Counted from the first letter of the stretch, positions 29,288-61,110 are shown. The stretch is 64,000 nucleotides of DNA from a virus (IMGVR_UViG_3300010167_000013), one strand, 5' to 3'. Made by a program: numbers and translations. The notes: generated by a model not told the origin, from the letters alone.

Positions 29288-29722
29288 CTACCTTGTTTTT
29301 ACTACGACATTTGGCATGTTATGATAATACTCGGGGATCGGGGTATTCAGATCGACTTGAACTACTTGTGGGTTATTAGTATTCCACAAATATATCATAT
29401 ATTTCCAAACCGTGTGTCCAAGCTCATTCTTAGAGTTTAAGAAATTAATGAGTGATCTTATCTCCCTTGTATCCATACTATCTTTGTGAGAACCATGAAG
29501 GAAATATTTTTCTTCTTCAAACAATATGCATCCTCCACCTTTGCCTTTGCTAGGAATCCCCTCATTGGGATCAAGCCCTCTGTAGAAATGAAAATGTGGG
29601 TAATTGCCTTCACGACCCCAGATAGCTAACTTGATACTATCGAATCCCCCTGCTACTGTTGCCATTTCCAAATAGGAAATATGAGTGGGTTTATCGTAAG
29701 CATCATCTAGTACATATTCCAT
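29288..29722 (-). CDS. DUF4160-like (DhiT toxin-like) protein with N-terminal leader
   Basis: I.I..RE..PHFH...C.....W..N pattern; adjacent to DUF2442-like gene. Confidence 0.55.
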   Translation of the reverse strand: MEYVLDDAYDKPTHISYLEMATVAGGFDSIKLAIWGREGNYPHFHFYRGLDPNEGIPSKGKGGGCILFEEEKYFLHGSHKDSMDTREIRSLINFLNSKNELGHTVWKYMIYLWNTNNPQVVQVDLNTPIPEYYHNMPNVVVKTR

Positions 29723-30019
29723 TTAAACACTAACCCCATTCTCAAATATAGTACCTAGCCCAAATATTGCATCTAAACCTAGTTCCTCATTTTTCCAATG
29801 CGGTGCCCCATAAACATTACTGCACATAACTGCATCAAATACTTCCTTATTCCTAAGACCCCTGAAGTATGGTTCATCGATGTACGGAGTCATATCAAAT
29901 ATTACTTTTTCTCCGGTGTAAAACTCTACTAGTATTCTGTAATTCTCTAGGGGAACCACAGAAATAGCAGATGCTGGTTGCTGTTCATCTTCGAATAATA
30001 AACCTTCTTTGACATACAA
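29723..30019 (-). CDS. DUF2442-like (DhiA antitoxin-like) protein, copy 1
   Basis: V.PLENYRILVEF.TGE...FD..P.....F..L.....F..V....G...W.N..D pattern. Confidence 0.75.
   Translation of the reverse strand: MYVKEGLLFEDEQQPASAISVVPLENYRILVEFYTGEKVIFDMTPYIDEPYFRGLRNKEVFDAVMCSNVYGAPHWKNEELGLDAIFGLGTIFENGVSV
29862..29949 (-). repeat. 88-bp exact repeat shared with 59701-59788 (inverted)
   Basis: Base-by-base identity TAGAGAATTACAG...CATACTTCAG. Confidence 0.95.
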
Positions 30020-30104
30020 TTCAATTACCTCCTCTTTACAATGATATATTATTACTTTATATCAATATAGAATATATAATTGCAAAATAGGAGGATACGG
30101 TTAC

Positions 30105-31535
30105 ATGACACTGGATATCTACAACACTCATATTGAACTTTATCCATACAAACAAGATGACTATCCAGCACTAGAAGATTTGTACAGAGCTACCGATAAA
30201 TTTACTCTGAAGGAATATCCATGTGGGTACCTAATCGAAGATGGTAAGCTATTTCTTCCAAGAGGAACAAGCATTAGCAAGATAGAATACATGGTTGGTG
30301 CGAAGGCAAACCATAACTTTGAAAGCGACCCAAAGGAGAAGATGAGCAAGGAGTTTAGTTCACTATTCGAGCCTAGGAATAAACTACAGGAAGAAGCTAT
30401 TGATTTCCTAATGAATGATCCTAACCCCCAACTAGCGCTAAATGCAGCTCCCGGTACAGGAAAAAGTTTCATGGTCGCGTTTACTTCTACACAACTATCA
30501 GAGAAGACAATCATAATATCTCCAAATGAAGGATTGAAATCTCAGTGGATAGGAACATACCACAAGATGTTCAACTACAAGCCGAAGAATCTGATGAATA
30601 TATCTGGGTCTAATGTGATGGACTCTATCATATTGGATGAGGTGGAACCTGCCGATATATATTTCGTTAACCACGCTACTCTTCGTAATTACATAAATCA
30701 ACACAATGGATATGCTCTACACAAGTTCTTCAAGAAGATCAAGGTTGGAATAAAAGTATATGATGAATCCCATCTGGAGTTTGCAAATATACTACTGATA
30801 GACTTCTTCAGTAATACAGCACGCACATGGTACTTGACAGCTACATTTGATCGTAGTGACAAAACTGAATCTGTATGTTTCAAGAGAGCATTCAGTAGTG
30901 TTGAAACATATGGTGAGTATGAGTCTAAAACGTCCATGGAGAAGCATGTAGTATATCATGTTGTGAATATCAATAGTAGAATATCTCCCAAGGAAAGATA
31001 CAAGGTGATTCCATATGGAAGAGGGATGTCATCAGCTACATATGGGCAATATGCATTCAACCGCGATCCAAATCAGACAGCCTACAATACCATTCTTACT
31101 CTCATGGAGAAGATAAAAGACCTGGAAGGCAAGATCCTGATCTTTGTTCCACTCATTGAAGCTGTGGATGATATCGTAAGGAAATTGAAGATAGATTGTC
31201 CTGAGAGAACAGTAGCCGGGTATCACTCAAAGATATCAAAGGATGAAAAAGAATCTGCGATCAAAAAGGATACAATAGTATCTACCATTAAATCATGTGG
31301 TGTTGGGAGAGACATACCAGGGCTGAGATCCATCATATGCATAGAACCTCACTCCTCTCGTGTTGTTGCAGAACAGATGATTGGCCGACTACGTCCCTAC
31401 TCTGAAGATAAACTTACATACTTTTTCGACATAGTTGATATATCAATTGCCCCAGTAACATGGTGGTGGAAAGCTCGCCATAAAAAGATACAGGAGTTGG
31501 TGAAGGAAACAATCTATCTAAACTTGGATGAATAA
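30105..31535 (+). CDS. SF2 helicase (UvsW/XPB-like)
   Basis: APGTGKS, YDESH, LTAT, GRDIPGL, QMIGRLR. Confidence 0.9.
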   Translation: MTLDIYNTHIELYPYKQDDYPALEDLYRATDKFTLKEYPCGYLIEDGKLFLPRGTSISKIEYMVGAKANHNFESDPKEKMSKEFSSLFEPRNKLQEEAIDFLMNDPNPQLALNAAPGTGKSFMVAFTSTQLSEKTIIISPNEGLKSQWIGTYHKMFNYKPKNLMNISGSNVMDSIILDEVEPADIYFVNHATLRNYINQHNGYALHKFFKKIKVGIKVYDESHLEFANILLIDFFSNTARTWYLTATFDRSDKTESVCFKRAFSSVETYGEYESKTSMEKHVVYHVVNINSRISPKERYKVIPYGRGMSSATYGQYAFNRDPNQTAYNTILTLMEKIKDLEGKILIFVPLIEAVDDIVRKLKIDCPERTVAGYHSKISKDEKESAIKKDTIVSTIKSCGVGRDIPGLRSIICIEPHSSRVVAEQMIGRLRPYSEDKLTYFFDIVDISIAPVTWWWKARHKKIQELVKETIYLNLDE

Positions 31536-31576
31536 AAAAATAAACCCTGGATATTCTCCAGGGTTTATTTTTTTAT
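31532..31576. terminator. Bidirectional terminator
   Basis: A-tract AAACCCTGGA-TATTC-TCCAGGGTTT T-tract between convergent genes. Confidence 0.8.
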
Positions 31577-31579
31577 GAC

Positions 31580-32017
31580 TCATACACATTCGAAGATCAC
31601 TTCATCTGCCCAGGCGCACATTTTTCTTTCCATGACAAATATGCTGTGAGATCCTGATCTGATGGAATAGCAAAGATTGTCGGTGGCTATTCTTAGACTG
31701 TCCTCTGGAGTTCCATACACATCACATGCTACATACGATATGTAGGACTCACAGTTGTTGACCTTCAGTTTGCCAGCGTATTCACGGGAGCGCTTCATGT
31801 TCCCTTCTTTCTTCTCGCCAAGATACTTGAGAGGTGATATACTACCTATATCTAGTGCGGTTCGAAGCTCAATGAATATGTTACCCCATGCCCCATATGC
31901 GCTGGAGTAGTAATACGGGTTAGACCAAAGGCTTTCACGGATTTTAAAACTGTAGAGCTTTTCTGTTGTGTAGAATTCTGTTACATCAGATATGAATCTA
32001 TCCAATCTTTCCAACAC
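31580..32017 (-). CDS. Hypothetical protein
   Basis: 145 aa, GGAGGAG RBS. Confidence 0.7.
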   Translation of the reverse strand: MLERLDRFISDVTEFYTTEKLYSFKIRESLWSNPYYYSSAYGAWGNIFIELRTALDIGSISPLKYLGEKKEGNMKRSREYAGKLKVNNCESYISYVACDVYGTPEDSLRIATDNLCYSIRSGSHSIFVMERKMCAWADEVIFECV

Positions 32018-32192
32018 CGTAACTCCTCCCTCTAGAGATGTGTTTCCTCATCAGCTGTTAATTTAGGTAGATCAGTATGGCATCATCTAACCAGATATGA
32101 TCTCCGCCTTGAAACCTGTATTAGTTACGAAGGTTCCGTGTACTTTCAATTGGATCGTGACTATACCTCCTATGGTATTTTTTTTGTTTTTA

Positions 32193-32522
32193 TTACCAAA
32201 TCCTATGACGTCTGCCGCCTTCGACTAACTCTCCTGCTTCCAAATACTCGCGTTCATGACGCTTGAGTTTCTCGATATCGAGTTCATAAGCATCATTGTA
32301 GTAATGCTTTAAAATCCTCGGGGCTTCATAAAACACAACCACCTTATTGCCCCAGTCGTTATATTCCTCATGATTTGGAGTTAAAGCTTGTTCCGCCCAC
32401 TTGACCGCGTCAGCCGATGGTACAATTCCGCCATCCGTATACTCTAACTTGATGTCCCCTTTTCTCAGGCGTGCTAATAATACTTTTCGCACTCTGTAGA
32501 AGTCGCTTGCATTTTTTCTCAT
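32193..32522 (-). CDS. Hypothetical protein
   Basis: 109 aa, GGGAGGT RBS, early-like motif 32568-32577. Confidence 0.7.
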   Translation of the reverse strand: MRKNASDFYRVRKVLLARLRKGDIKLEYTDGGIVPSADAVKWAEQALTPNHEEYNDWGNKVVVFYEAPRILKHYYNDAYELDIEKLKRHEREYLEAGELVEGGRRHRIW

Positions 32523-32666
32523 CTGATTATACCTCCCAGTATAATATTTTATTTTTGTTACATACTAAGAATATATACATATCACAGAAGGATATACGAT
32601 TTATAATTATATATTATAAACAGTACCTAAGTAGTTCATTAGTTATCTCAAAAGGAGGAAGTATGC

Positions 32667-33272
32667 ATGATTGAAGTAACAAACCCTGGAGAAATGGATA
32701 TGGCGGTCAAATATGCCACCTGCAAGATCCTGGATGTCATGGGTGATCTAGTTCCACGATTTGGTGTTGAGAAGGCAGTTTCAATGCTGGAAGAGGCAGT
32801 GGCCGATATAATCGAGTATTATACCGTTGATTATGAAAAGGGTGATCATTGCTGCTGCAACGAAGAAGAGGAATGCTGTGATGTAGATGGGTGTGAGAAT
32901 GCAAGTACCCCAGATGCTCCAACTATTCCCGTCGGCCCAACCAAGAAAAAGAAGAAGTCCAAGAAAGGAAAGTCGGTGAAGGGTGAGTTGAAAACATCTC
33001 TACTCAGTGCTTCGCCAACTACCGAACTTCGTTACTTCGAGAAGTACATGAAGAATCATCTTGATGCTCAGTTTGAAAAATCAATGAAGAAGATGCAGGA
33101 GAAGATCCTGAAGAAGGTGACAACAAGAACCATGGAATACATCAAGGGCAGGCAACTGGTGACTAATTTTAGGTTTGAGGAATACATGGAAGAGTTACTG
33201 GAACGCTTGGAGAGGAATAATCCTGGATGGGTAATACCCAAACACGAAGATATTCTTGATGTCATAGAGTGA
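32667..33272 (+). CDS. Hypothetical protein with Cys/acidic cluster
   Basis: HCCCNEEEECCDVDGC; RBS; early motif 32605-32617. Confidence 0.75.
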   Translation: MIEVTNPGEMDMAVKYATCKILDVMGDLVPRFGVEKAVSMLEEAVADIIEYYTVDYEKGDHCCCNEEEECCDVDGCENASTPDAPTIPVGPTKKKKKSKKGKSVKGELKTSLLSASPTTELRYFEKYMKNHLDAQFEKSMKKMQEKILKKVTTRTMEYIKGRQLVTNFRFEEYMEELLERLERNNPGWVIPKHEDILDVIE

Positions 33273-33312
33273 TGAAAGTAGGAGGGATTCACTCCCTCCT
33301 ACTTTTTTGTTT

Positions 33313-36300
33313 TTAGTTCAAATCAAACACTGGATTGTTGCGAACAATCCTTCCTGTTCTTTTCTTCGAATTGATATTCACCGAATTGAAGTCATATATC
33401 TTGTACGCAGCTTCGTTACGAGTATGAACTAATTCTCCTAGCTCGTCATACAACCTGGCTGTTGTTCCGTACCATTCATCATCACTAATAACAACGTGTT
33501 CATGAATAGGAGAGTTTGGGTTATTGATCTCCTCGACCCACTCATCGTTCAAGAGATCTGCTATCTCATCATCCGTAATCGGTTTGAATCCGAACTGTTC
33601 GAATCTCATATTCGACCCACTGAGAGAAACTCCTTCCAGTGTAGGTATGTCAATCAGCATGAACTGATATGAAGAGCTATCAAGTCCAATTATTGGCATA
33701 TCTCCAGGAACATGTATTCTCTGGATGATGTCATCTTCTTCATCTACATTTGGAGGATAATCCTTGAATGACGGATGTGTTTGTTCTACCTGATTCCATA
33801 CGGGTGACAGTAGATATTCTTGTTCTTCCAGACTGTAGTTATCATCCGGAAGTGTTCCTTCAATTGCTTTGTCTAGATATGTTTCGTAATTCCAGTAGGC
33901 AAATGGTCTACCGTATGAACTGGATCTCATTTCCAAGAACATGTCACTGAAGAATTCATTTGGGTCTCTGTTGACTTCGATTATCTCAAAATTCCTCAGG
34001 GATTTTAGTCCATGTAAAATTATCTTTGATGGAGAAATAATTGTTACCTCATCATACAGTAGCCTTCCGTTCATCCAGAACTCGAAGTACTTCTTGTTCA
34101 GTGGCTTATTTATTTTTCCTTCCAGGTTGATATATCCATGGCTAGGAACCCTCCTCTGAACATACACCGACCGCATTGGGTATGGGACTGAATGTATCTC
34201 CAGATGTTCATACCTACGATATAGATTCATGAAGGTGACATCTGTTCCAGTAGATGTTTCCCTAGTATGAAATGATGGCATCCCAGTAGATGGGTTGATC
34301 AAAGGGAACCTTCCTCTGTCGGTGATGATGTACAGTCTTTCGTGATGAATGTTGTAATTCGGGATATGAAACTTCGGAGATAGTATCCAGTTTGGTTCGA
34401 TGAATGACCATGTCTGTGGGGTCTTACTTATTATGATATCATAGTCATATGGCCCATCTAGATCATACTGGACTATTACCTTGAACTCTTCCGGAACTGG
34501 AGCTAGCTCATTGGTTACATTGTGAATATAACCATCTCCGTATAATTCCTGCTCCTCTGTCTTGAACTCGATCAGTACAACACCCATTTGGAGTCGTGTC
34601 TGACTACTCTTCTGATATACTTGGAACTCTAGTGCTATGTTTTCTGTCGGAGGATTTGGACAGTGAACTGGAGTGAACGTGAGCATTGGTGCATATTCTC
34701 CAAGTTGTGCTGTCACAGTACCAAAAATATGAATACCAAATTCTTGGTTCCATCCCCAGACAGGTCCATCGGAGAAATCTTCTCCAGCTTTGGAAATAAT
34801 AGACTGGATCATTCTGGTGTTGGTTTCATATCCTCTGTTGAATGCTCTGTTATCCTTGAAACGAACCTCAAACATCTGCCTGTCAAGAATGTCTTCGAAC
34901 CTGTTGGCTGATCTGTTGAATATCTTGATGTCCTTCAGATGAATTTGATTTTTGTAGTGTTTGTAGTTGGCTAATTTGAAGTCCATTTCATATCCAAGTG
35001 GATCTCCTTCAGAAAATCCAATGGTGAAACTTTCCCTCTGTTCATACGGAAACAGCTTCCTAATCCTGATGCTCTTCCCTGTGTCAACAGGCATGTTTAT
35101 TGCACTAGTTTTTACTTCATCGATAATAGATGTGTAGATGTCCATGACAGCATTTCTCTTGAGGTCAACGGCTCTCATCTGGTTGGAGGGGAGTTTATTC
35201 CAATAGAACTTCATGTTGTATGCGTACAGTCCCTCTTCCAGGAAAGTCAATCTGAATCCCCAGTCTTCGTTATCAGGATCATCTCTTACTTCAAGCTTCC
35301 ATCTTTCCTCGTTGTGTAGGTCTTCCCATTTCATCAGTGTCCAATTGAACACAGATAGATCATCTACAGTCATCTCATGGATATACATGGTCTTATTTAC
35401 TTTCTCTGGAATATGTTCCCTGGGATATTTCCCATCGACTATTCCATCCTGAATCTCTGTGAACGATTTCGTTCTCCATGGGGCTGATGGATATTGTTGT
35501 TTGATGTTTGGGAAGTCTGGATACCAGTCTACGTTCATCCAATCAACATCGATATGATTCCACTTCAGATCAGCAACAATGGGAAGATTGTATACAAAGA
35601 ACCCAGCAACAACGAATGTGCGTATTCTGTAGATCATTCTGTGTCCATTGTTCGTCTCATCTGATTCTACAGCTACTCTCTTCCCAACAGAACCTTCTGG
35701 CCATTCGTTTCTATGCTTCGGTAGATCAGCAAATGTGGGTACTGTAAGATCGACCTTCAGAGTACCAAGCAGCTCTTCAATAGAATCAATCTGTTGTACC
35801 AATACTAGTTTGATATCAACGTCTTCTCCACTAGATATGATATCCTTGGATACTGTGAATTCTTTTACTTCCCAGCTTTCCTTGAGTTCAAATCCGGCAT
35901 TGTGAAAACGAAGATGTTCGAACAATTGATACTCTCCCCTAGATGCACCTGGAGGAAGTCTTAGTTCATCTTTGATGAATGGATGAGTTGGTGGAATTAG
36001 ATTCATCACCCTATTCCATCTGTCCTCACTCAGAGGATCTATTCCTCCCTGATACCAACCACCATCAGGATCTCCGATTGGAGGATCGATTATGTCAGGC
36101 ATTTTCACAGATGGGTACATGAATGTACTATTCCTGTCATCGCCATCTGACTCGTCAAATCGTTTTGAAATGAATTCTATTCCTGGGTACGAGAGTGTTG
36201 CATCCTTTTTTATTCCTTCTTCAGGGATCCTGTCGTAGTAGGAAATTGTGAACTCATCGTCTATGTTGTTCATGCTGTCTGTTATCACTTCACCGTTTAG

Positions 36301-39300
36301 TGTCTGAGGATCCTTCCGCTCAAATACTAATTTACCATCGGCCATATCTATGTACGATATTCCCTTGTATGGTTCGTACAGTAGAGCAGCTACCTTCAAT
36401 CTCAGGGCGAATTGAGTTGCATCAACAAATATATCCTGTCCAACAGAATACCCTGCTCCAGGATCTTTTATCACAATATCATCTATCCTGTACACAAAGT
36501 ATTGATCTGCTGGAATAAATATGGAAGAATTCTTGAGACCCAGTACATCGTTTGCATTGACGTAGACAACATCAATCTTTCCTGGATGTAGTATATTGTC
36601 ACTGTCCTCACGACGTTGATAACACTTGGTGACCTGTCTTCCTCCTATGAATACCTCATACGTCATGTTCAGGTCATGTATATTTTCAAACTTGAACATG
36701 AATAGATCATTATCATCTACTTGCTGGGTTGAATTGAGAGATGGATTTTCGGTGTTCAATATGCTACTATCCTTCAGTAACAGCTCAACACAGAATATGT
36801 CTACAGTCAGTCCACTTCCTATTCCGGTCCTTGTGATTGTTTTTCTTATTCCCCATATCGGATATGGAAGAGCATAATCCATCAATGGTTGTAGACCTAA
36901 TACATTTCCATCCTCTGTGGTTGTAACTTGGAATAATACTACATCATTGCGTATCACATCATCTAGTGCTGGGAACAACGACTCTTCATCTTCATTCACC
37001 GGTATTTCTGGTATTATCTCGATGATGTCTCCAGCCCTGTATCCTTTCCCTCTCAGTGCTGGGAGAACATTTCTGATTCGATACCAATGATCCTGAGGAA
37101 GATTACCAAGGTCAACAGATTCTATCTTGGTAATTGTTCCTGAGACAATTCCTTCAATCGGTATTACATGTGATGGTATACTCACGGTGATTGTATTTTT
37201 TATTTGCCCCAACCAAGCATCAAGACGAATAATCTCGTCACTCAGTTCATCTATCTTTTCACTTGGATCCCATCTTGGAAATACTTCCTTTTTGTAGATC
37301 CATATTGCTTCTCTAGAATCCTGAATCTTATCCAGAACTCTTGGTACATCCCTCCATGCGATTCCAATTCCCATGAACACCAGAAGCTCATCATAGATAG
37401 ATCTTACCTCATTATCATGGAGGAGAAAATCTTCATCAACTAGATCATTAGCATCTGCATATCGATATACATTGTGAATTAGTTTTTCAAAATCTCCTGC
37501 AAATTCCTGGAGATTAACCTTGTATCTGATATCGATGAATGTCTTACTCGGAGGAATTATTGTCTTGAGTAAGTTCAATACATCCGTCATGTAATTCTGA
37601 GTTCCAGATGTGACGTACTCAGAAAATACATCTACAATATCATTCCAATCCTTATCCACCTCATCTATGCTACTCAACAACAGATTGTATTCCGTGTTGT
37701 TGGATGGGTTGACTGTCAATACGAACTGGGTTATTCTGGATAAAATATTTCTTACTCTGACTATCAGTGGTAATATGATCGTATCATTGGATATTGCTTC
37801 TCTTGTTGAAGATATTGCTTTCACCATGAACCCAGAGCCAATACCACTGGATATACTATCGTACGGTCGAATCTGAGTGCATGGATCCCTGAAGTTGGTC
37901 TTCCGATAGTTGGTATCCTCTACCTCTTTGACCTTGAATGTTTCTCCCTCAGTGTCAACAACTTTGTATGATCCCAACTTCGGAATGAACACCACATCTC
38001 CAACTTCATGACGGAATCCACCATTGTAGATTTCTATCTCATCTATCTCAAAAACTTCCGAGTAACTAGGCCATCCACTATCTGGTACATATGGCTCATT
38101 GATAATATCCATGTATTCCAGTAGAGATAAAATTATTGCCAATCTATCTTCAAGTATAGTCAAGAAGGGACTTGGTACTTCTGTAGTATCCAGTAGTACT
38201 TCAAATACGTCTCCCTCATGTTCCACGAATGCATACCAGTCCCAGTAGATAGTATCTACGTTGTCCAGTGCCTCTTCTGCTTCCCACCTACGATTTTCAC
38301 CAGCGATATATGAGACAGCCTCAAGCATCTTCTCCAGATTCAAAACAAAATCAGATCCGAACACCTTCTCGGTATCACTGATATCAAACCCATCAAATGA
38401 ATTCAGTAATTCGATTATCTCGAATATGGTATCCTTGAGGTCGTTTCTCGCATCATAGTACGATTCGATGTGAATGTTGAAGCTATTGATCATGTCTTGA
38501 GCATTGTCAAATCTATCCACAATATCTTGAGTAGGAGTGATACTCCTATCCAACCAAAATAACTCAACGGCTGCTCTGAACTTACCAAGATCCACTTTGA
38601 CATTCTCAACTAGTTCTACGAAGAATTGCACCTCTTCATTCGAGTAGGTTTTCCTTGGATCAAAACTACTGTTCAATAGTGCTGATGAAACAAAGAATGC
38701 ATTTCTCTTCTCTTTGACATCTGTAGACCACGGATCAAGAAATTCATTGATCTCTCCAACAACACTGATGTCATCTGGATTAGTCTTCGAATGATCAAGG
38801 TATGAACGAAGATCGTTGACACAGAGCATGAATGCAGCCATGTCGAATCCTTCAACCCGTATCATCACCTCATTGATCTTGTCAGCCAATGTGCCCACTA
38901 TATCATTGATATCGGAGAGTAGATCTTTTTTCTCGTTGTACACATTCTTTTCTTCGATGTGTACTCTCACTTCTGAAATTATAATTTTTACCTCATCAAG
39001 AATACCCTTGTGTCTGAGAAGTCCAGCAGCAATCCAGTTGATATCCTCGATGGAGTAGACATACATATTTAGGTTGTTGATAAAGTCCATTATCTCTTCC
39101 ATGTTACTAAGGAGCTTCTGGATAATGTCCCTCAGACCTTCGATTTGATCAATGTCCAGATTGTAATGTTCGATCGACAGTTGATCGAGTACCCAGGCAA
39201 TATTTGTGAAAATATCCATGGTTACATCAATTATCTCTGTCTGTATCTCTAGGATGATTGGACTGATCCTTCTCATGTCAAATGTACTTGGAGGCCTCTT

Positions 39301-48329: not shown

Positions 48330-48800
48330 TTACTTCTTTAGATCGGCAAACAATGTAGCAGTACTAATTTCGCCATTCCAATGTTTTAACATTATTCCAT
48401 GATTAGCTGAAATATAATCAAACACTTCATCTTTCGGTTTTCCTTTTAACTCTTTTTCTGCCTTTGTTAATTGTGTTCCTTTTAATAGAATTTCAGGTTG
48501 TTCTGCAATACTTACTGGAATCAGATTATCACTCTTCACCCTTACTTTTACTCTAGGGGTATCGTGTTTATTCTGTCTAGACTTTCCTGCATCATCAAAC
48601 CATAGTCCATATGGAAGTCCTGAATCCTCAGGTTGAAAATTTGCCATCTCAAATATTCCATCTTTGTACATGGCAATATTTTCCAACACTTGTAACTGAA
48701 ATGCTTTCATTTCAACAGTTGCTACTTCCTTACCAACTTTTTTTATATCGTTCATTGACACTTCCCTTCCTATTCTATTTTGCAAACTTCTATTTTGCAA
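48330..48800 (-). CDS. DUF4160-like protein with N-terminal leader (no adjacent antitoxin)
   Basis: EMAN..SGLP..LW...HDTPRVKV...YI..N...LKHWN. Confidence 0.5.
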   Translation of the reverse strand: MQNRSLQNRIGREVSMNDIKKVGKEVATVEMKAFQLQVLENIAMYKDGIFEMANFQPEDSGLPYGLWFDDAGKSRQNKHDTPRVKVRVKSDNLIPVSIAEQPEILLKGTQLTKAEKELKGKPKDEVFDYISANHGIMLKHWNGEISTATLFADLKK

Positions 48801-49140
48801 ACTTCTCTAATTTTGTTGTTGTCTTGTATCGTATTGCATTTGATAATTCTTCCGCTGATATGTCACTGAACAGACAGGCATTGACAACTTGAATAAATAC
48901 ATCTGCTAGTTCTTCTGCTTTTGCTTCTTTATTTATATACTCTGGGAATTTGTATCCTGGTATATTGAGCTCCAGACCCTTTGGTCTATTGTCCTCCTTC
49001 TTCGCTTCCTCTGCTTCTTCATGGATACCTGCGATTGCTTTCCAGAAGTACTCTGGGTTATCTCCGACTTTTATTCCCAGTACTTCCTGTATTTGTTTCT
49101 GTATTACAAATGCCTCATGGATACATTGATTATCCATCAT
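48790..49140 (-). CDS. MazG/dimeric dUTPase-like NTP pyrophosphatase
   Basis: EEAEE and EELADV motifs; early motif 49156-49168. Confidence 0.75.
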   Translation of the reverse strand: MMDNQCIHEAFVIQKQIQEVLGIKVGDNPEYFWKAIAGIHEEAEEAKKEDNRPKGLELNIPGYKFPEYINKEAKAEELADVFIQVVNACLFSDISAEELSNAIRYKTTTKLEKFAK

Positions 49141-49188
49141 ATAACCTCCACACTAAGAATATATAATTAAGAATTAATAATATCCGAT

Positions 49189-49226
49189 GACATGAAGGGA
49201 TCCTCATATGAGGATCCCTTCATGTC
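49189..49226. terminator. 38-bp perfect palindrome
   Basis: GACATGAAGGGATCCTCAT|ATGAGGATCCCTTCATGTC. Confidence 0.65.
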
Positions 49227-49242
49227 CCTCCACTGAAAATAT

Positions 49243-50310: not shown

Positions 50311-50403
50311 GTTATCCTCCCTCCTGTTGATATGGGCAATAATATTAATCAACGGTTCAGAAACAAGCATATTAACCATCGAAGGTAAAGGAGTTCAGAC
50401 GAT

Positions 50404-51411: not shown

Positions 51412-51428
51412 TAGGAAGGAGGGATATA

Positions 51429-54305: not shown

Positions 54306-54306
54306 A

Positions 54307-54346
54307 AAATAAATATCAGGGGAAGTACTTCCCCTGATATTTATTT
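54307..54346. terminator. 40-bp perfect palindrome, bidirectional terminator
   Basis: AAATAAATATCAGGGGAAGT|ACTTCCCCTGATATTTATTT. Confidence 0.75.
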
Positions 54347-54348
54347 CA

Positions 54349-54678
54349 TCATGCACTAGTATCAATAGTAATCGTGAAGGAAACATTGCCACCTGTGAAT
54401 GGGAGTATATCCTCAACTGATTCAAAATCAACTATCTCATATGCCACACCATCTTTGCAGAGCACTATTACATATGTGAGTAACCCAGTGCCTACGTCAT
54501 CACTGTACAACTCAAATGTGTACTTCAGATTATCTTCCCCATCATTCTCTGGAAGTGATATTGTACACCTGTATTTATTTTGATCCTCTTCTACTACAGG
54601 ATAGAATTCATCCAAATCATGTGAGAACACTTGAAGGTTATCCAATGAATTGATAACTATGTTGGCCAAGGGAATCAA
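54349..54678 (-). CDS. Hypothetical acidic protein
   Basis: 109 aa, overlaps upstream stop. Confidence 0.65.
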   Translation of the reverse strand: MIPLANIVINSLDNLQVFSHDLDEFYPVVEEDQNKYRCTISLPENDGEDNLKYTFELYSDDVGTGLLTYVIVLCKDGVAYEIVDFESVEDILPFTGGNVSFTITIDTSA

Positions 54679-55199
54679 CCCTCCTTGATACTCAGTGACC
54701 TATTGACAACCTGTTTTGTCATTTCCAGAATCATTTCCCTACCTAGTTCTTTTATCCTCTCACTGTCATCTTTTCTGATTATATCCATGAGTTGGTAGAT
54801 ACGATAGTCACAGAATATTTTCTCCGGATCAACCTTGATGCCATTGTCATTTGCTGCAAGTTCAAGATTGGTTTGTCGTATCTTGTTTCTGAACTTGCTA
54901 CAGGTCCGTTTGAGAGCTAGAGGGGTAGTATGATATTTTATCGCTAGATCATTTACGTTAGCTCCATCATCCAATTCAGTTAGGATCAGTGCCCAGTCTC
55001 TTTTTACTGGGGGATCTTCAGATTTCTTTTCTCTGCGTGATGGCACAACTGGCTCTATCTCTGTGCCTTCGTATCCCTTCACTATTTCTCTTATTTCACT
55101 TTCCTTGCAGCAGTTTAGTTCTGCAAGCACCTTGATTTGTTTTTCTTTGTTTGTTGCCAGGCTGTACTTGTACCTTATTTCCTTTTCCGTATATTGCAA
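54675..55199 (-). CDS. Hypothetical protein, possible HTH
   Basis: IKVLAELNCC...EIREI; VNDLAIKYHTT. Confidence 0.65.
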   Translation of the reverse strand: MQYTEKEIRYKYSLATNKEKQIKVLAELNCCKESEIREIVKGYEGTEIEPVVPSRREKKSEDPPVKRDWALILTELDDGANVNDLAIKYHTTPLALKRTCSKFRNKIRQTNLELAANDNGIKVDPEKIFCDYRIYQLMDIIRKDDSERIKELGREMILEMTKQVVNRSLSIKEG

Positions 55200-55257
55200 T
55201 AGAATCCCACCTTGCCGTATATGTTTTAATTTATATTCAGGTCGGTAGTGTTCTACA

Positions 55258-55485
55258 TCAAGTACCCCATACTCTCTTGAAATTTACTCTCAGTTCCTCA
55301 TATTCGGTATGAGGAAGAGGTAGAGACGGATCTACTCCTTCTTTTCCACAGATTGCGCATATCCATGGGAATTTCTTGTCTCGATGGTAATTAGAGTATA
55401 CCTTGTGATGATCAATGCACTTCGTTGAATCATTCATCCTAATTGGAACATTGTCGTACATAGACAACTGTGTATACTCTTCCAT
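55258..55485 (-). CDS. Small Cys/His protein
   Basis: C.DH...WICAICGKEG. Confidence 0.65.
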   Translation of the reverse strand: MEEYTQLSMYDNVPIRMNDSTKCIDHHKVYSNYHRDKKFPWICAICGKEGVDPSLPLPHTEYEELRVNFKRVWGT

Positions 55486-55495
55486 ATCAATGCTC

Positions 55496-55660
55496 CTATT
55501 CTGTGAAGTACTCTAGTTTTTCTGTCAGTGGAATTGGATTTCCTTTTTCATCAAGTACTAGATTTCCATTTGAATCTCTCTTATACACGATGGTGGTACT
55601 ACTCAGTCCCTCTCTGAACTTCAGATCATTACCATCATTTGCTCTTACTGTTTTTTCCAT
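55496..55660 (-). CDS. Small protein, 54 aa (not in ORF track)
   Basis: MEKTVRANDGNDLKFREGLSSTTIVYKRDSNGNLVLDEKGNPIPLTEKLEYFTE; AAGGAG RBS; fills operon gap. Confidence 0.6.
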   Translation of the reverse strand: MEKTVRANDGNDLKFREGLSSTTIVYKRDSNGNLVLDEKGNPIPLTEKLEYFTE

Positions 55661-55823
55661 CTGCGAACAGCTCCTTTCTATCGATTACTTTGTTCCCATC
55701 AACTTTAACAAGATGTGAGTATTTTCCAACCTTGATGGTTCCATTTTTTATCGAGAGGATTATCCCATCCAGATCATCACCTCTGTATTTCTCAAACCTA
55801 CTGATGCATTTCATTTCGATCAA
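55635..55823 (-). CDS. Small hypothetical protein
   Basis: 62 aa, early motif 55835-55847. Confidence 0.55.
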   Translation of the reverse strand: MIEMKCISRFEKYRGDDLDGIILSIKNGTIKVGKYSHLVKVDGNKVIDRKELFADGKNSKSK

Positions 55824-55897
55824 CCTCCTGCTGTAGAATATATAATTCAGTGAACCCGATAGATAATATCATATACAATGAAGGGTGGTAACCATAG

Positions 55898-57022
55898 ATG
55901 GAACTAACATTGGACTTGGGTGCTATTGATGATGTTGTACTGGAGTCAACACTCGAGGGTGTCGAATACCTTGAATTCTGTGATACCCTGAACTACCTCT
56001 CCAGTTTTTTAGACCAAAGATTATACTTGGAAGCCAGGGTAGATGATGCGAAAACGTTTGGGGATAAAATGGGGGATGCTTTCAGGAATACAGCCAATAC
56101 AACAAAGGATGTAGGGGTTGCGTACGACAAGGTCACAGATGGTGGTGGAGTGTTAGCAAAATCTGTCTGGGATCTGATGATGACAGCAATAAAGTTTTCA
56201 GTCAAGGTTCTTTCATTTGTGCTCAAGAATATTGCCAAGATCCCGAGATTCGCGAATAATACATTCAAGAAGATCGGACGGATACCGAAGAACATACGTG
56301 ACCTGATCAAGGGTAACATCAAATTATACATAGCTGCTCAAGACCTTCAATACTTCTACAATACAATATTCCCAAATGTGAGAAACTTCCTCAGCTTAGC
56401 CAAGGGGATGTCAGAAGGAGAAGTATGGGGAACTTTCTGGAAAGGCGATGCATCCGACACCAAGAACCCAAAACAGGGAGCATTCAAAAGTGGAAGAGAT
56501 GATATGGCTATCTACAAATCCATGAAAGAAATTTCAGATAAATTGAGGAAAGTTAGATTTGAGTTGTCTACTATTGAAATGGGCGACCAAGGAGCTCTTG
56601 ACACATACTTTGGTGACAGCAAGTCGATATCGTTCAAAGATATCTCAGGACGAACTCATCAGTCATCGTACCGAGAAGCATTAGCGGCACTATCAACCGA
56701 ACTCACTGGAAATGGTTCTGATTCTCTTCAGACTCAATTGGAAGATATTCAGAAAATGCTGAGTGAGAAACTCAACGTTACCCAAGGAAACCAAGAATTT
56801 GCTAACTTGAAGTCACGTGAGCAACAGAATGTCAAGAACAGCATACTGATGGTATCAGAAGTAGTTCGTATCGTAGGAGATTTTGTCAGATACATATTCG
56901 CCGACATTAGTGCATTGGACAAGGCTGCAACCACAGTTCTCATGAAACGTGGGGTTAATCCCCCAGTTCAAATAAACCCGCCCTCTTCGAAGAAACCAAA
57001 GAAAAAGGAAGAGAAGGCCTAG
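55898..57022 (+). CDS. Putative internal head protein with acidic propeptide
   Basis: Acidic N-terminus with repeated xLE sites (VLE, TLE, YLE, YLE), then a helical basic body. Confidence 0.5.
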   Translation: MELTLDLGAIDDVVLESTLEGVEYLEFCDTLNYLSSFLDQRLYLEARVDDAKTFGDKMGDAFRNTANTTKDVGVAYDKVTDGGGVLAKSVWDLMMTAIKFSVKVLSFVLKNIAKIPRFANNTFKKIGRIPKNIRDLIKGNIKLYIAAQDLQYFYNTIFPNVRNFLSLAKGMSEGEVWGTFWKGDASDTKNPKQGAFKSGRDDMAIYKSMKEISDKLRKVRFELSTIEMGDQGALDTYFGDSKSISFKDISGRTHQSSYREALAALSTELTGNGSDSLQTQLEDIQKMLSEKLNVTQGNQEFANLKSREQQNVKNSILMVSEVVRIVGDFVRYIFADISALDKAATTVLMKRGVNPPVQINPPSSKKPKKKEEKA

Positions 57023-57705
57023 GCCTTCTCTTTTTTTACATTTGGAATTTGCCAGCATATTCCTGTGTAACCCTTCTCCTGTAGGAAGTCATTGGCTCGT
57101 GAGAAATGCTTGCATCCAAAGAATCTATCTCCGGCTAATGGACTAGGATGTGCTGCAGTCAATATCAAATGACTGTGAGTATTGACAGTATACATCTTCT
57201 GTTGTGCATCCCTTCCCCAGAGCATGAACACAGCAGGGTTTCCTATTCTGTCAATTATCTCTATGATCTTATCTGTGAATACTTCCCAGCCTTTACCACG
57301 ATGAGATTTGCTTATTCCCTCTCTCACAGTCAGTATTGTATTTAGTAGCAAGACTCCCTGTCTAGCCCATGGTATTAAACATCCATTGTCCGGGATGAAG
57401 CAACCTATGTCTTCACGTAACTCTTTGAATATATTCAAGAGTGATGGAGGTATTCTGATTCCTGGTTGGACTGAGAATGCTAGTCCATGAGCTTCACCAT
57501 GATTGATATATGGGTCTTGCCCAATTATTACCACCTTGATATCTCTACATGCAGTGTACCTCAGTGAATTGAATATATCGATCATAGGTGGATAGCATGA
57601 TACAGATGAGTACTCATGCTTCAGAAAAGCTACAAGCTGTTGGTAGTAATCTTTCTGAAATTCATCCTTCAGTAATTCATCCCAGTCGTTCCCTATGGTT
57701 ATCAT
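57019..57705 (-). CDS. ung: Uracil-DNA glycosylase, family 1
   Basis: GQDPY, HGLAFS, PPSLLNI, GVLLLN, LWG, HPSPL. Confidence 0.97.
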   Translation of the reverse strand: MITIGNDWDELLKDEFQKDYYQQLVAFLKHEYSSVSCYPPMIDIFNSLRYTACRDIKVVIIGQDPYINHGEAHGLAFSVQPGIRIPPSLLNIFKELREDIGCFIPDNGCLIPWARQGVLLLNTILTVREGISKSHRGKGWEVFTDKIIEIIDRIGNPAVFMLWGRDAQQKMYTVNTHSHLILTAAHPSPLAGDRFFGCKHFSRANDFLQEKGYTGICWQIPNVKKEKA

Positions 57706-57842
57706 ATTTTTTTAGTAACAAGTTTCCCACACTCACTACATTGAGACACAACAACCTTTGTCATACCACCATCCATCTTGTACGAATGGGCCAAACCAAA
57801 CCGATGCCTACAGAATAACTGTTTGAAGAACCTAGAGATCAT
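57702..57842 (-). CDS. Small CxH...CxxCG zinc-finger protein (DUF1660-like), 46 aa
   Basis: MISRFFKQLFCRHRF...QCSECGKLVTKKI; ATGA overlap with ung. Confidence 0.65.
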   Translation of the reverse strand: MISRFFKQLFCRHRFGLAHSYKMDGGMTKVVVSQCSECGKLVTKKI

Positions 57843-57996
57843 ACCATCTTCCCCTCCTGACTTTTCCACATTTAGAACATTTTCTAGAAGACTTTGAACC
57901 GGATATGAATATCATACTAGAAGATGCACCATATTGTTGAAGCTGTATCGCGTAATCATGCTGACACAGTAAACGTTTCACAAATAGTTTCATCAT
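57832..57996 (-). CDS. Small CxH...CxxCG zinc-finger protein (DUF1660-like), 54 aa
   Basis: MMKLFVKRLLCQHDY...KCSKCGKVR; AGGAGTG RBS. Confidence 0.65.
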   Translation of the reverse strand: MMKLFVKRLLCQHDYAIQLQQYGASSSMIFISGSKSSRKCSKCGKVRRGRWYDL

Positions 57997-58038
57997 ATCC
58001 AATTCACTCCTTTATAAATTTTTATACCACACACTGAG

Positions 58039-59229
58039 GTGATTATATTGAATCTCACAACAGATCAGTACTACTCATTGTCCAAGTTAGATCGTTGGTA
58101 CAACAAGTACACTCAGCAGTTCATAGATATCTCTGGAGTTATTGGTACAGGTACCTGGGAATTAGTTCAACTGTTCATTGAAAATACTAATTTAGACGCC
58201 AGAGAAGTAATGTATCTTTCACCGAATCAGAAGCAAGTTCTTGAGCTGGCATTTCGAAAATATCACTCGTATTACATATACCCTATAATATATAATTACA
58301 TTCGGATAGTAGATTTTGAATCTCTTCCAGTAGTAAATGGGTACAGCAAGGAAGTCAAATATGAATGGAAAAAGGAAGTCAGAAAAAGAATCGATGTGAA
58401 ATACAAGTTGATCGTAGTACTGGACTCATCTCTGTTGAACTTCCAGACTATCCAGGATCTATCCACATTTGGTATTCCTATCATACTTCTGAAAGATCCG
58501 ATGCTGCTTCCAGCATCGGATACGTACACATTCTTGAGAGATGCTAATATCAAACTCTATGAACTCAACCCAGAGTATCTAAAAGATCCCATCGCATATT
58601 TTGCCCACAAGATATTGAACAGGGAAAGATTAGATTACGGTAACTATGATAATGTATCAATTGTTCCAAGAAAGCAGATCAATCTATTCAACCTCAGATC
58701 ATCTGATATGAATATCGCCATATCGGATACTCTCAGAGATAGTATCAACCGAATATACCGGGAGAGGATACTGAAGAGGAAGGATATGACTACTGTACCA
58801 AATGAGAGAGTAGTGGCAATGAATACAATGTACAGCAGGAAGATTACTAATCAAGACAACAAAAAAGTGAAAGTGTATTTATCCAAGGGAACTGTTGGTA
58901 CATTGCCAAAGGTGAACAAACATGCAGTTGGAACAAAGTACGTCAATGTTGACTTTCAGCCTGAATTCTATCATGAGTCATTCACTGGTCTCATTATCAA
59001 TAGACACTACCTTAACAAGGTAGAGCTCCCATCTCAGCAAATGATACCAGATGAAATTGCCAACTTTGAATATGCATATGCACTTACTGTACAGATGAGC
59101 AGATTATCTCACTGGGATAAAGTAACACTCATAGTAGATAACAATCAGGAGAATGATCCTGATTTACAGCAGATGCTATTATACACAGCAATTACTAGAG
59201 CTGTCAAGTCGTTGACAATTGTGATCTAG
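58039..59229 (+). CDS. Dda/RecD-like SF1B helicase, catalytically degenerate
   Basis: LTTDQ, GVIGTGTW (no Lys), VLDSS (no DE), KDPMLLP, YAYALTV, LYTAITRA. Confidence 0.75.
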   Translation: MIILNLTTDQYYSLSKLDRWYNKYTQQFIDISGVIGTGTWELVQLFIENTNLDAREVMYLSPNQKQVLELAFRKYHSYYIYPIIYNYIRIVDFESLPVVNGYSKEVKYEWKKEVRKRIDVKYKLIVVLDSSLLNFQTIQDLSTFGIPIILLKDPMLLPASDTYTFLRDANIKLYELNPEYLKDPIAYFAHKILNRERLDYGNYDNVSIVPRKQINLFNLRSSDMNIAISDTLRDSINRIYRERILKRKDMTTVPNERVVAMNTMYSRKITNQDNKKVKVYLSKGTVGTLPKVNKHAVGTKYVNVDFQPEFYHESFTGLIINRHYLNKVELPSQQMIPDEIANFEYAYALTVQMSRLSHWDKVTLIVDNNQENDPDLQQMLLYTAITRAVKSLTIVI

Positions 59230-59233
59230 AGTA

Positions 59234-59297
59234 TATCCTCCAATCTGAATTATATATTCTAATCTAGATAAAGAAAAGGAGTTGTTGTTCAAATGGA
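59234..59297 (+). repeat. 64-bp promoter+RBS cassette, copy 2
   Basis: Matches 2345-2408 reverse complement. Confidence 0.85.
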
Positions 59298-59619
59298 TGA
59301 TATTGGAAAAGAGTTTGAGTTAAACATTGTCAATGATATCATTACAGAGATGGGTGAGGTGGGTAAGACACCGGATAAAATTACATTGAGGATGAGAATG
59401 GAACCAGTCCATCAGAACTTTCCTCATATTCATGCCTGGAAGGCTGGAAGGAAAGCAGTATTTCTTGCCGATGGCTCGCTTGTAGTTAATAGTTCGAAAT
59501 CTCCATTGACAAGTGACGAAGTAAAAAGTGTCTATCGCTGGATCTCTTCTCATAAAGACGGTCTTGATGAAAACTGGCAGATACTGAAAGCCGGAGGAAA
59601 GGTGAAAATACTTCCATAG
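59293..59619 (+). CDS. DUF4160-like (DhiT toxin-like) protein with N-terminal leader
   Basis: E..H...PHIHA...A.F..DG...V..WI..H...L.ENW. Confidence 0.7.
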   Translation: MDDIGKEFELNIVNDIITEMGEVGKTPDKITLRMRMEPVHQNFPHIHAWKAGRKAVFLADGSLVVNSSKSPLTSDEVKSVYRWISSHKDGLDENWQILKAGGKVKILP

Positions 59620-59630
59620 GAGGATATAAT

Positions 59631-59924
59631 ATGCATATCAGTAGAGGAGTGTTGATGACAGATGACAATGATTTGGCGGGTATTGTGGATGTCATCCCAT
59701 TAGAGAATTACAGAATACTAGTAGAGTTTTACACCGGAGAAAAAGTAATATTTGATATGACTCCGTACATCGATGAACCATACTTCAGAGGCCTTAGAAA
59801 TAAGGAAGTATTTGATGCGGTTCGTCATGACTATGAAGCCCCATTGTGGCAAAATGAGGAACTAGGTCTAGACGCAGAAATGGGATTGTGCACTATATTT
59901 GAGAATGGGATTAGTGTTCAATAG
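59631..59924 (+). CDS. DUF2442-like antitoxin, copy 2
   Basis: Near-identical core to 29723-30019. Confidence 0.75.
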   Translation: MHISRGVLMTDDNDLAGIVDVIPLENYRILVEFYTGEKVIFDMTPYIDEPYFRGLRNKEVFDAVRHDYEAPLWQNEELGLDAEMGLCTIFENGISVQ

Positions 59925-59933
59925 GAGGAAGTT

Positions 59934-60722
59934 ATGGACTATCTAAAAGAAACAGTCAGAGTTGATATCGGTGATCCACCTGGAGTAGCTGTTGGTACTG
60001 TCAAAGAGTATGTTGGGTTGAGTGAAAAGGAGACAGCTAAGTTGCTGTACGTCAGACTGAATAAGGATAGAACTAACTTAAACTACCTGAATATCCATGA
60101 GTGCACTGAGTACGCTAAGGAGATAAGGGAAGGACAGCTGAAAGAGTACCTACCAAGGAACAAAATGTTCATTACAGAAGCTGCTCTCACATATTTATCG
60201 GAAGTAACGTTCTCAAGCATAAAAGACAGATTCAATAATATGTCGTCTATCGTGAGAGCAAAGTATCATCTCACCAAAAAACAATTGATAGACATCCAGG
60301 GATTGCAAGAACAACAAGGAGACGAATCGAAAAAGTTGGGTATACCATTGAATAGTATACCGATTAAACTACCAGAGGATATTGAAATTAGCGGACACGC
60401 AATGAACATGATTAACTCCAGAGAAATGAAGCAAAAATTGGCTAGAAGAATGGGTCGTGATAACCCTGATGAAATCAAACCAGTTGAGCTTGCGCAGTAT
60501 ATTATAGACACTTCAATGTTCATGTTCAATCAAAAAAGCAAGCTTAGCAACAAAATTGATGGAAAAACACGTCTATATGTATCATCGGATGGAGCAACTG
60601 CTATATCGGTCTCTGAGAATACAGAAGGTACTATTGTAACAATATTCCATGTAAGTGAGTTCGACAAATATCACCTTGGGGTGATAGTTAGGAGGGTAGA
60701 AACATGGTTGGGGATAAAATAG
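59934..60722 (+). CDS. Putative toxin (C-terminal RNase-like domain)
   Basis: ISGHAMNMINSR...YV...GTIVTIF pattern; overlapped by a small immunity-like gene. Confidence 0.4.
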   Translation: MDYLKETVRVDIGDPPGVAVGTVKEYVGLSEKETAKLLYVRLNKDRTNLNYLNIHECTEYAKEIREGQLKEYLPRNKMFITEAALTYLSEVTFSSIKDRFNNMSSIVRAKYHLTKKQLIDIQGLQEQQGDESKKLGIPLNSIPIKLPEDIEISGHAMNMINSREMKQKLARRMGRDNPDEIKPVELAQYIIDTSMFMFNQKSKLSNKIDGKTRLYVSSDGATAISVSENTEGTIVTIFHVSEFDKYHLGVIVRRVETWLGIK

Positions 60723-61006
60723 AATACGAAATATCGCAGTTAGACGAAGAAGAAAGGAACATGTATTTTAGCATACGCGCTATTATAAGTGGTTGGGACC
60801 CTCTATATTTGCTCATCAATGGAGCTCCTAATGATGAGTATCATTGCGAGGCCAGCAGAATTCTCGAAATAATAAAAACCGATAACAAGGCTTCTAAACT
60901 TGAAAAATACTTTGATGAGTTCTTTGATAGCAACCTGAAGAAAAATAAACGAGCTTTTATGAAAGAAAGTCGTTTGGTGTCAAGAATACTTCTTGAGGTA
61001 TGCTAA
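60704..61006 (+). CDS. DUF1871/YugE-like protein, putative immunity protein
   Basis: WDPL....AP.DEY..EA..I motif. Confidence 0.7.
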   Translation: MVGDKIEYEISQLDEEERNMYFSIRAIISGWDPLYLLINGAPNDEYHCEASRILEIIKTDNKASKLEKYFDEFFDSNLKKNKRAFMKESRLVSRILLEVC

Positions 61007-61110
61007 ATGGAACTTGAGTCTAGAGTAAACAAACAAGATTGGATAGAGTTTGGTAATCCACCAAATGAAATGGCTAGACAATTTATGATGGAGAATTTCG
61101 GATGCTGTAT
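61007..61110 (+). pseudogene. Possible truncated paralog of the 59934 N-terminus
   Basis: GAGGT RBS; IEFGNPPNEMARQFMMENFG versus VDIGDPPGVAVGTVKEYVG; frame runs into the terminator hairpin 61108-61139. Confidence 0.3.

Follow-up and report, generated by a model that had tools for sequence, protein, structure and literature searches.

We identified three genes in an uncultured phage, encoding the DUF4160-like proteins P0001, P0002 (also designated P0008), and P0003, that appear to form a branch of the DUF4160 (DhiT toxin-like) superfamily characterised by an N-terminal leader and specific to a phage lineage. The genes lie in a stretch of 64,000 nucleotides (nt) of viral DNA (IMGVR_UViG_3300010167_000013; hereafter, the window), in which features between positions 29,288 and 61,110 were examined. 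We see an even chance that they provide early intracellular effectors or toxin-antitoxin (TA)-like conflict modules. Each copy in the window belongs to a short operon that begins immediately after a predicted early promoter of the AR9 type, and translation very probably starts at an upstream AUG with a strong Shine-Dalgarno (SD) sequence, yielding a product that keeps an acidic leader of 19–36 residues. The leader is joined to the domain at a hydrophobic-x-Glu/Met-(Ala/Gly/Ser) junction (the slash marks the junction), in which the Met probably represents a fossil start codon. Two of the copies are paired with DUF2442 (DhiA antitoxin-like) paralogues, which seem to have been homogenised by gene conversion.

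The window belongs to a jumbo phage; its PHROG matches (a PhuZ-like tubulin, a primase, helicases, and a virion structural protein) agree with the phage origin proposed in a preliminary description of this DNA. No DNA match to the window was found among GenBank phages, and P0001, P0002, P0004, and P0005 had no protein matches there; P0003 had a single weak match. For comparison, we used two complete IMG/VR phages, which were reached through homologues of the proteins under study and served as proxies for protease and capsid genes. One of these (G001; 292 kb) is related to the window phage, as it carries a copy of a 958-amino-acid (aa) virion protein with 57–64% identity and a P0005 orthologue with 31% identity. 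The other (G002; 233 kb) is T4-like and encodes a Gp23-family capsid protein.

Identity of the DUF4160-like proteins

All three proteins had been described as DUF4160-like in the preliminary description; this assignment stands for P0003, through Pfam, and for P0001, through an intermediate homologue, and P0002 is only plausibly related. P0003 matched Pfam DUF4160 (PF13711; gathering cut-off of 23 bits) at 34.2 bits (E = 3e-8; model positions 5–65), and its homologue P0019 scored 43.7 bits. A direct match to Pfam DUF4160 was absent for P0001. Its 40%-identical homologue in G002 scored 22.5 bits (23.1 bits with neighbours) against the cut-off of 23, P0001 itself presented a colinear match to the DUF4160 profile in hhalign (P = 0.0035 and 0.0014), and it keeps a PHFH signature as well as the C-terminal Trp helix; because of the homologue score, the colinear profile match, and the PHFH signature, P0001 was accepted as a putative divergent DUF4160 member. 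P0001 and P0003, which are ~21% identical, both retain the His-x-His signature.

P0002 presented no match to Pfam DUF4160 at the gathering cut-off. The P0002 family aligned with DUF4160 in a colinear register (hhalign P = 0.014, 0.11, and 0.15), with PRVK replacing PHxH. The AlphaFold model of P0002 was mediocre (predicted local distance difference test (pLDDT) of 68.7; four of five models near 40), and an uncharacterised protein, A0A6J5L727, was the sole structural neighbour in BFVD shared by the P0002 and P0003 models. The best support for kinship is tandem linkage: in the metagenome contig L010, a P0002-type gene closes a tandem array of three leader-bearing genes, the first two of which are clear relatives of P0001 and of P0007, its homologue in G001. 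The P0002 family is thus plausibly a DUF4160 relative. The start of the P0002 gene is most likely ATG 48755, rather than TTG 48800, since this ATG is favoured by an SD sequence (GGAAGGGAAG) and by a start column conserved in nine of 11 homologues.

The AlphaFold2 model of P0003 had a pLDDT of 82, with values <50 in the leader. A Foldseek search of the PDB with the DUF4160 model yielded no match at E ≤ 0.001, and the best VIA-align hit (Z = 5.2) was within noise. At least four dispersed copies are present in the genome to which the window belongs, i.e., the three in the window and a paralogue, P0009, further along. A P0002-family member with a full leader was also observed on a 4.1-kb contig (L012; QMCD01010698.1), where its neighbours encode a WYL-like regulator and a MORN-repeat-like protein. 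The setting may be that of a bacterium or a prophage, and lytic jumbo phages may thus not be the only carriers of the P0002 family.

Translation and distribution of the leader

Among the 12 family genes with DNA in hand, nine presented an AGGAG-type SD sequence at the annotated upstream start, and 10 had none before the internal AUG; the family genomes use strong GGAGG sites. Members of the P0002 family show conservation of the leader in its protein sequence and share a fixed start column. Because strong ribosome binding sites are found at the upstream starts and not at the internal Met, the leaders are very probably translated, and the distribution of SD sequences speaks against the internal Met being the true start, a point on which the preliminary description had made its reading depend.

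An exhaustive search with P0003 retrieved canonical proteins of 82–89 aa, in which residue 1 aligns with Met20 or Gly21 of P0003. In 79 bacterial loci, picked via a C-terminal motif, the aligned residue 1 was a start codon in 78, preceded by an SD sequence in 64, and the reading frame was closed ≤20 codons upstream in 61. These proteins begin with Met, Val, or Leu followed by Pro (Pro2 in 79/79), and none of the 79 loci carries a leader; the leader is, then, not equally common in bacterial homologues. All phage members, by comparison, have a leader, and the residue following the Met is Ala, Gly, or Ser; the canonical Met-Pro N-terminus was not encountered among them. Since the junction Met aligns with the bacterial start, it most likely represents the fossil start codon of a leaderless ancestor, and the leader appears to be specific to this phage lineage.

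The leader junction and its origin

The hydrophobic-x-Glu sites that had been read from the DNA, i.e., SYLE/MA in P0001, GIFE/MA in P0002, IITE/MG in P0003, and FITE/AA in P0004, were all confirmed in the translations. The tetrapeptide [LIVMFY]xEM alone is not enriched in the window proteome (13 observed vs. 13.4 expected); although its frequency equals expectation, a chance motif was ruled out by positional conservation. In six P0001-type proteins with 20–66% identity, Glu19, Met20, and Ala21 are three of nine invariant columns, and P0019 keeps YIKE/MG at the junction. In the P0002 family, the Glu is kept in nine and the Met-Ala in 10 of 11 members, the exceptions being Val at P1 in two and Ser-Phe instead of Met-Ala in one. 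In the model of P0003, the junction opens strand 1 (residues 18–25), and in the models of both P0003 and P0002 it lies at the border between a low-confidence leader and a confident domain.

Across the family, leaders are net acidic (charge −1 to −34) and 12–220 residues long. Two of them, in G001 (L001:5743-6387) and in L010 (L010:626-1273), have 76–97 residues and carry a KOW-like motif at their N-terminal end (Pfam KOW E = 9e-4 and 0.079; below cut-off). On another contig (L011:7440-8420; Ga0123353_10000469), a P0002-type domain ends a 326-aa protein with a 220-residue N-terminal part of net charge −34. The tandem trio in L010 (L010:106-1805; Ga0099364_10262364) presented the junctions FVE/MA, IME/MA, and IFE/MA, and, ahead of the start codon, its first and third genes have 25 bases in common.

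The preliminary description had capsid-targeting propeptides grafted onto TA toxins by the phage. Three independent grafts were ruled out in favour of one leader-bearing ancestor, as the junction, the register, and the N-terminal leader tips are common to the subfamilies; together with the 25 identical upstream bases in L010, these shared features suggest a single leader-bearing ancestor and recombination at the 5′ end, and the leaders look inherited from that ancestor. P0008 and its in-genome paralogue P0009 have 36 of 39 leader residues in common, as compared to only 61% of the remainder; gene conversion, in view of the tract found in the DUF2442 genes (see below), could equally explain this leader identity.

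Promoters and expression timing

The early consensus of the AR9 virion RNA polymerase (RNAP) is AAATATATATTAT-(6N)-G (PMC5312081). The related motif TTATATATT[AC]T presented 17 exact copies (0.26 expected), and a motif search placed an early-type promoter, AATTATATATTCT, before each of the three operons that contain the DUF4160-like genes (operons A, B, and C; Table 1). The motif was also found upstream of the tubulin and primase genes; it was absent before the genes for the 958-aa virion protein, both giant proteins, a fibre-like protein, and P0005. P0007 is encoded by a solo, monocistronic gene in G001 with its own AATTATATATTAT and AAGGAG, and the early motif was absent before each of the G001 protease, portal-like, scaffold-like, and phiKZ_IP genes. 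From these motifs we infer that all three window operons are expressed early. As the early motif is common to about 17 other sites, it argues against a module-specific autoregulation by the antitoxin.

Within the head-gene region of G001, early-type motifs front non-structural-looking genes at C1 positions 148903, 156349, 158442, and 162947, suggesting a fine-grained alternation of early and late genes in this lineage. Searches for late promoters identified no enrichment of GAACNCGAT from the P0005 upstream regions, AACA-(6N)-T[AG] was found upstream of just one of 25 gene starts checked, and TATAAATA was uninformative for late promoters in G002 at 30% G+C.

P0005, the head protease, and packaging

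P0005 is probably a phiKZ-type internal head protein. Its N-terminal 45 residues contain four Leu-Glu dipeptides and the remaining 329 only one, in agreement with the preliminary description, which had noted similar xLE sites in this putative head protein. The last of the four, YLE/A at residues 43–46, is kept as FIE/A in the G001 orthologue. P0005 grouped with phiKZ_IP clusters in Atlas (feature score of 0.91; 207 shared features); it had no match to Pfam phiKZ_IP (PF12699; cut-off of 27 bits) even at E ≤ 10, and in BLASTP it aligned weakly but colinearly (E = 0.062) with a G001 open reading frame that passes PF12699. The PF12699-type genes of G001 encode VITE/A and IFTE/A ahead of a hydrophobic helix, the same propeptide-then-helix layout as in P0005.

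Both G001 and G002 encode a Peptidase_S77 scoring over the cut-off. Head proteases of giant phages have a general Glu specificity, and the T4 rule is L/I-x-E (PMC5694885); the leader junction fits cleavage by a Glu-specific head protease of the Peptidase_S77 type. With regard to the features of T4-type cargo, the window proteins present the N-terminal propeptide ending in hydrophobic-x-Glu, and their promoter motifs do not point to (late) expression with the head genes. Packaging of the DUF4160-like proteins into the capsid, as put forward in the preliminary description, is thus not supported, given the early promoters predicted for all three operons and the G001 homologue. Among 356 predicted G002 genes, an N-terminus of the MK-x-NL..ES type occurs only in the Gp23-family capsid protein and the leader-bearing DUF4160 protein (G002:C1:78947 and 41502).

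Partner and neighbouring genes

Both DUF2442 genes scored above the Pfam cut-off (PF10387; 23.9 bits) and adjoin DUF4160-like genes, which bears out the DUF4160/DUF2442 pairs noted previously; these are of the DhiTA type. In operon C, the DUF4160 gene precedes DUF2442b, the two being co-oriented with an 11-nt gap behind one upstream promoter motif. The order is reversed in operon A, where DUF2442a is followed by the P0001 gene, whose ATG abuts the DUF2442a stop codon (TAAATG coupling), and operon B contains no DUF2442 gene. DUF2442a and DUF2442b are 71% identical and share an identical 41-aa core, although the DUF4160 proteins that accompany them differ greatly from each other. At the DNA level, a tract of ~125 nt (in 29760-29960 and 59680-59880) presented ~97% identity with much more diverged flanks, a pattern suggestive of recent gene conversion between paralogues at separate loci.

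No DUF2442 gene was found in G001 or G002, both of which have a leader-bearing DUF4160 gene; the antitoxin homologue would therefore not be obligate. No conserved partner gene was identified among the homologue loci of the P0002 family either. The proposal that DUF1871 and DUF2442 proteins act as general protective partners was not borne out, as DUF2442 is lacking in these two genomes, the P0002 family has no conserved partner, and the DUF1871 resemblance of the fourth gene in operon C is below threshold (PF08958, 16.6 bits, E = 0.01, vs. a cut-off of 22; nothing in PDB or NCBIfam).

Table 1. Positions of the genes, promoter motifs, and junction residues in the window
Feature	Position	Strand	Remarks
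P0001, divergent DUF4160-like protein, 144 aa	29288..29722	-	putative assignment; leader residues 1-19 (29666-29722); junction SYLE/MA
P0001 candidate fossil start, Met20	29663-29665	-	alignment with canonical DUF4160 start
DUF2442a, 98 aa, first gene of operon A	29723..30019	-	TTG start behind AGAGGAGG; PF10387 28.3 bits; PHROG 37898
Early-type promoter motif AATTATATATTCT before operon A	30069..30081	-	12/13 positions of AR9 early consensus
P0002/P0008, plausibly DUF4160-like, 141 aa	48330..48755	-	leader residues 1-36; junction GIFE/MA; Met37 at 48645-48647
116-aa protein, weak MazG-like pyrophosphatase signal	48790..49140	-	Pfam MazG E = 0.057, PHROG 3301 E = 0.0076, both sub-threshold
Early-type promoter motif before operon B	49156..49168	-	motif search
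P0005, probable phiKZ-type internal head protein, 374 aa	55898..57022	+	no early promoter of its own
Early-type promoter motif before operon C	59248..59260	+	motif search
P0003, DUF4160 protein, 108 aa	59293..59619	+	leader residues 1-19; junction IITE/MG; Met20 at 59350-59352
DUF2442b, 97 aa	59631..59924	+	PF10387 26.6 bits; canonical position downstream of DUF4160
P0004, third gene of operon C, 262 aa	59934..60722	+	FITE/AA at residues 79-84
100-aa protein, fourth gene of operon C	60704..61006	+	DUF1871 resemblance below threshold

The MazG-like gene was ruled out as an antitoxin for P0002, being absent upstream of P0002 homologues. At its stop codon, just upstream of the P0002 ribosome binding site, a 15-nt unit (aagtttgcaaaatag) is directly duplicated (window positions 48779-48808, minus strand). 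P0004 had no match in Pfam, PHROG, NCBIfam, PADLOC, PDB, or phages; its sole lead consists of Atlas matches of low TM (template modelling) score to small toxin domains, obtained with a model of pLDDT 0.48, and the earlier designation of this protein as toxin-like was left without family, structure, or homologue support. No match was obtained with the defence-system models of PADLOC and NCBIfam. A uracil-DNA-glycosylase (UDG)-superfamily protein (Pfam UDG 63.7 bits; PHROG 12143 E = 1e-60) is encoded at 57019-57705 on the minus strand, where it co-occurs with AR9-type early promoters in the window phage; AR9-type phages are known for uracil-containing DNA.

Possible roles of the leader-bearing proteins

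If the genes encode early intracellular effectors or conflict modules, injected virion RNAP would read their promoters within minutes of infection, and the products would act inside the newly infected cell, possibly by shutting off the host, by excluding competing phages, or by interfering with host defence based on DUF4160/DUF2442. The DUF4160-like proteins would then not be cargo delivered by the capsid, and the leader would remain attached as an accessory or regulatory N-terminal module.

Several points weigh against this reading. A Glu-specific head protease would be expected to cut at precisely such a junction, and the pattern seen between P0008 and P0009 (36/39 leader residues kept vs. 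61% elsewhere) has also been reported, for leader against body, for the targeting propeptides of SPN3US gp53 and gp54 (PMC5694885). The timing of expression is deduced from a promoter motif; dual early and late expression of the operons is possible, and AR9 has genes with both early and late expression as well as early transcripts that persist late (PMC5312081). In addition, the P0002 family, a merely plausible DUF4160 relative, has lost the His-x-His signature.

An alternative that we consider unlikely, though one to be taken seriously, is that the leader is a capsid-targeting propeptide, cut after the junction Glu by a prohead protease of the Peptidase_S77 type, with the DUF4160 domain being packaged and injected. 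Glu at P1 and a hydrophobic residue at P3 are found in nearly all members, as expected from the T4 L/I-x-E rule (PMC5694885), and Peptidase_S77 is encoded by both G001 and G002. However, hydrophobic-x-Glu is expected ~2.4 times per 100 residues, P1 is Val in two of 11 P0002-family members, Ser-Phe replaces Met-Ala in one, and the P1′ Met is not among the head-protein sites identified here, which have Ala or Ser. YLE/A, FIE/A, VITE/A, and IFTE/A precede the conserved bodies of P0005 and of the internal-head-protein-like proteins of G001, and the same tripeptide marks both kinds of protein in each genome (YLE in the window, FIE in G001), a co-variation that rests on two genomes and was noticed post hoc. 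The 15-residue leader in G002 begins like the N-terminus of the capsid protein, and the P0008/P0009 leader is far better conserved than the domain; leaders of 97–220 aa with a KOW-like domain, on the other hand, are unlike targeting peptides, and the junction of the P0003 model coincides with the start of strand 1 (residues 18–25). The early motif before every operon and before the P0007 gene, the location among early and replication genes, and the failure to recognise any late-type signal argue against packaging, and the lack of DUF2442 in G001 and G002 implies that self-protection by an antitoxin would not be general. An extended version, in which giant and T4-like gut phages turned a DUF4160 toxin into injected first-strike cargo by means of the inherited leader, which Peptidase_S77 would cut after the conserved Glu so that the ancestral N-terminus is exposed, with early DUF2442 protecting their own infection, seems rather unlikely.

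It is quite unlikely, in our view, that the modules serve counter-defence, with the early DUF2442 proteins mimicking antitoxins against host DUF4160 TA or Menshen-type systems and with degenerate DUF4160-like copies acting as decoys or regulators. Phage antitoxin mimics are established elsewhere, e.g., DarG-like proteins in T4-like and nucleus-forming phages (PMC11825919, PMC13309987), and DUF4160 is a host effector domain in Menshen. The predicted early expression, the replacement of PHxH by PRVK in the P0002 family, and the near-identical DUF2442 core paired with two very different DUF4160 partners would also fit such a role. However, G001 and G002 keep the DUF4160-like gene and not DUF2442, suggesting that the conserved element is the toxin-like gene, and P0001 and P0003 keep the His-x-His signature.

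Another possibility, which we regard as improbable, is that the leader holds the domain inactive, taking the place of the antitoxin where a copy stands alone, and that its removal or displacement, by an agent other than the head protease, ends the inhibition. Such a cis-inhibitor would account for solo leader-bearing copies without DUF2442 in G001, G002, and the whole P0002 family, and it would mask the free Met-Pro N-terminus that is invariant in bacterial members (79/79), although phage copies have Ala, Gly, or Ser rather than Pro after the Met. The position of the junction at the border of leader and domain in the structural models is consistent with this role; however, P0001 and P0003 bear a leader even though each is accompanied by DUF2442, and no candidate protease or trigger was found. 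Finally, it is highly improbable that initiation takes place, solely or in addition, at the internal Met, the leader then being untranslated or confined to a minor long isoform. In favour of such a start are the alignment of this Met with the canonical start and the small residue next to it, as expected under the Met-aminopeptidase rule. The internal start was rejected on the SD evidence (10 of 12 genes lack an SD ahead of the internal AUG, whereas nine of 12 have one at the upstream start); moreover, the protein sequence of the leader is conserved, its start column is fixed, and one member has no Met at the junction.

Significance

DUF4160/DUF2442 is a recently validated TA family, of which the mechanism and fold are not known. 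The analysis reveals a multi-copy branch of DUF4160 that appears specific to a phage lineage, behind predicted early promoters and with a sharply conserved leader junction on a likely fossil start codon. This junction provides a handle for experiments, with and without the leader, on TA toxins as takeover or injected effectors. Delivery of these proteins in the capsid, a minor but real prospect, is coherent and cheaply testable, but what evidence there is on timing speaks against it at present; if true, it would extend the T4 internal-protein paradigm to TA toxins. If not, the genes would still represent toxin genes domesticated into the early programme of a jumbo phage, some of them without an antitoxin.

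Comparison with known systems

DhiTA of Dickeya dadantii 3937 is an experimentally demonstrated type II TA system with a DUF4160 toxin (DhiT) and a DUF2442 antitoxin (DhiA) (PMC8198452). Operon C resembles it in its pair of domains and in the position of the toxin-like gene ahead of the antitoxin-like gene, with 11-nt spacing, and P0003 and both DUF2442 proteins pass Pfam. Unlike the bacterial proteins, the phage proteins bear a leader of 19–36 aa, which is absent from the 79 bacterial loci examined, and have Ala or Gly after the Met instead of an invariant Pro. The promoter is of the early type read by a phage virion RNAP, whereas DhiTA has an autoregulated sigma-70 promoter; furthermore, operon A is reversed, and related phages keep the toxin-like gene without DUF2442.

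In T4, the internal proteins IPI-III and Alt carry capsid-targeting sequences that are removed by the prohead protease gp21, a Peptidase_S77 (PMC5694885, PMC9026906). The phage proteins described here resemble them in having a short acidic N-terminal extension that ends in hydrophobic-x-Glu on otherwise unrelated cargo, in a lineage with Peptidase_S77 in G001 and G002. They differ in the early promoter context of their genes, in the Met at P1′, and in leaders that in some members reach 100–220 aa or contain a KOW-like domain. The inner-body and ejection proteins (phiKZ_IP) of phiKZ, 201phi2-1, and SPN3US are processed at S/A/G-x-E or A-x-E (PMC5694885). P0005 is similar to these (Atlas 0.91), with a cluster of Leu-Glu sites within residues 1–45, and the near-identical N-termini and diverged bodies of SPN3US gp53 and gp54 recall P0008 and P0009; however, P0005 is below the Pfam threshold, and the DUF4160-like genes are outside the head module, are not of late type, and encode a hydrophobic rather than a small residue at P3.

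In Menshen, DUF4160 is the effector domain of NsnC-like proteins, for which no structural homologue is known (PMC12065111). The same domain thus occurs as a conflict effector, and no structural homologue was found here either; there, the domain is C-terminal in a host defence protein, whereas here it forms a small, putatively early phage protein. The DarG-like orphan antitoxins (PMC11825919, PMC13309987) are likewise early phage genes homologous to a bacterial antitoxin; in the phage described here, by contrast, the antitoxin homologue is accompanied by a toxin homologue.

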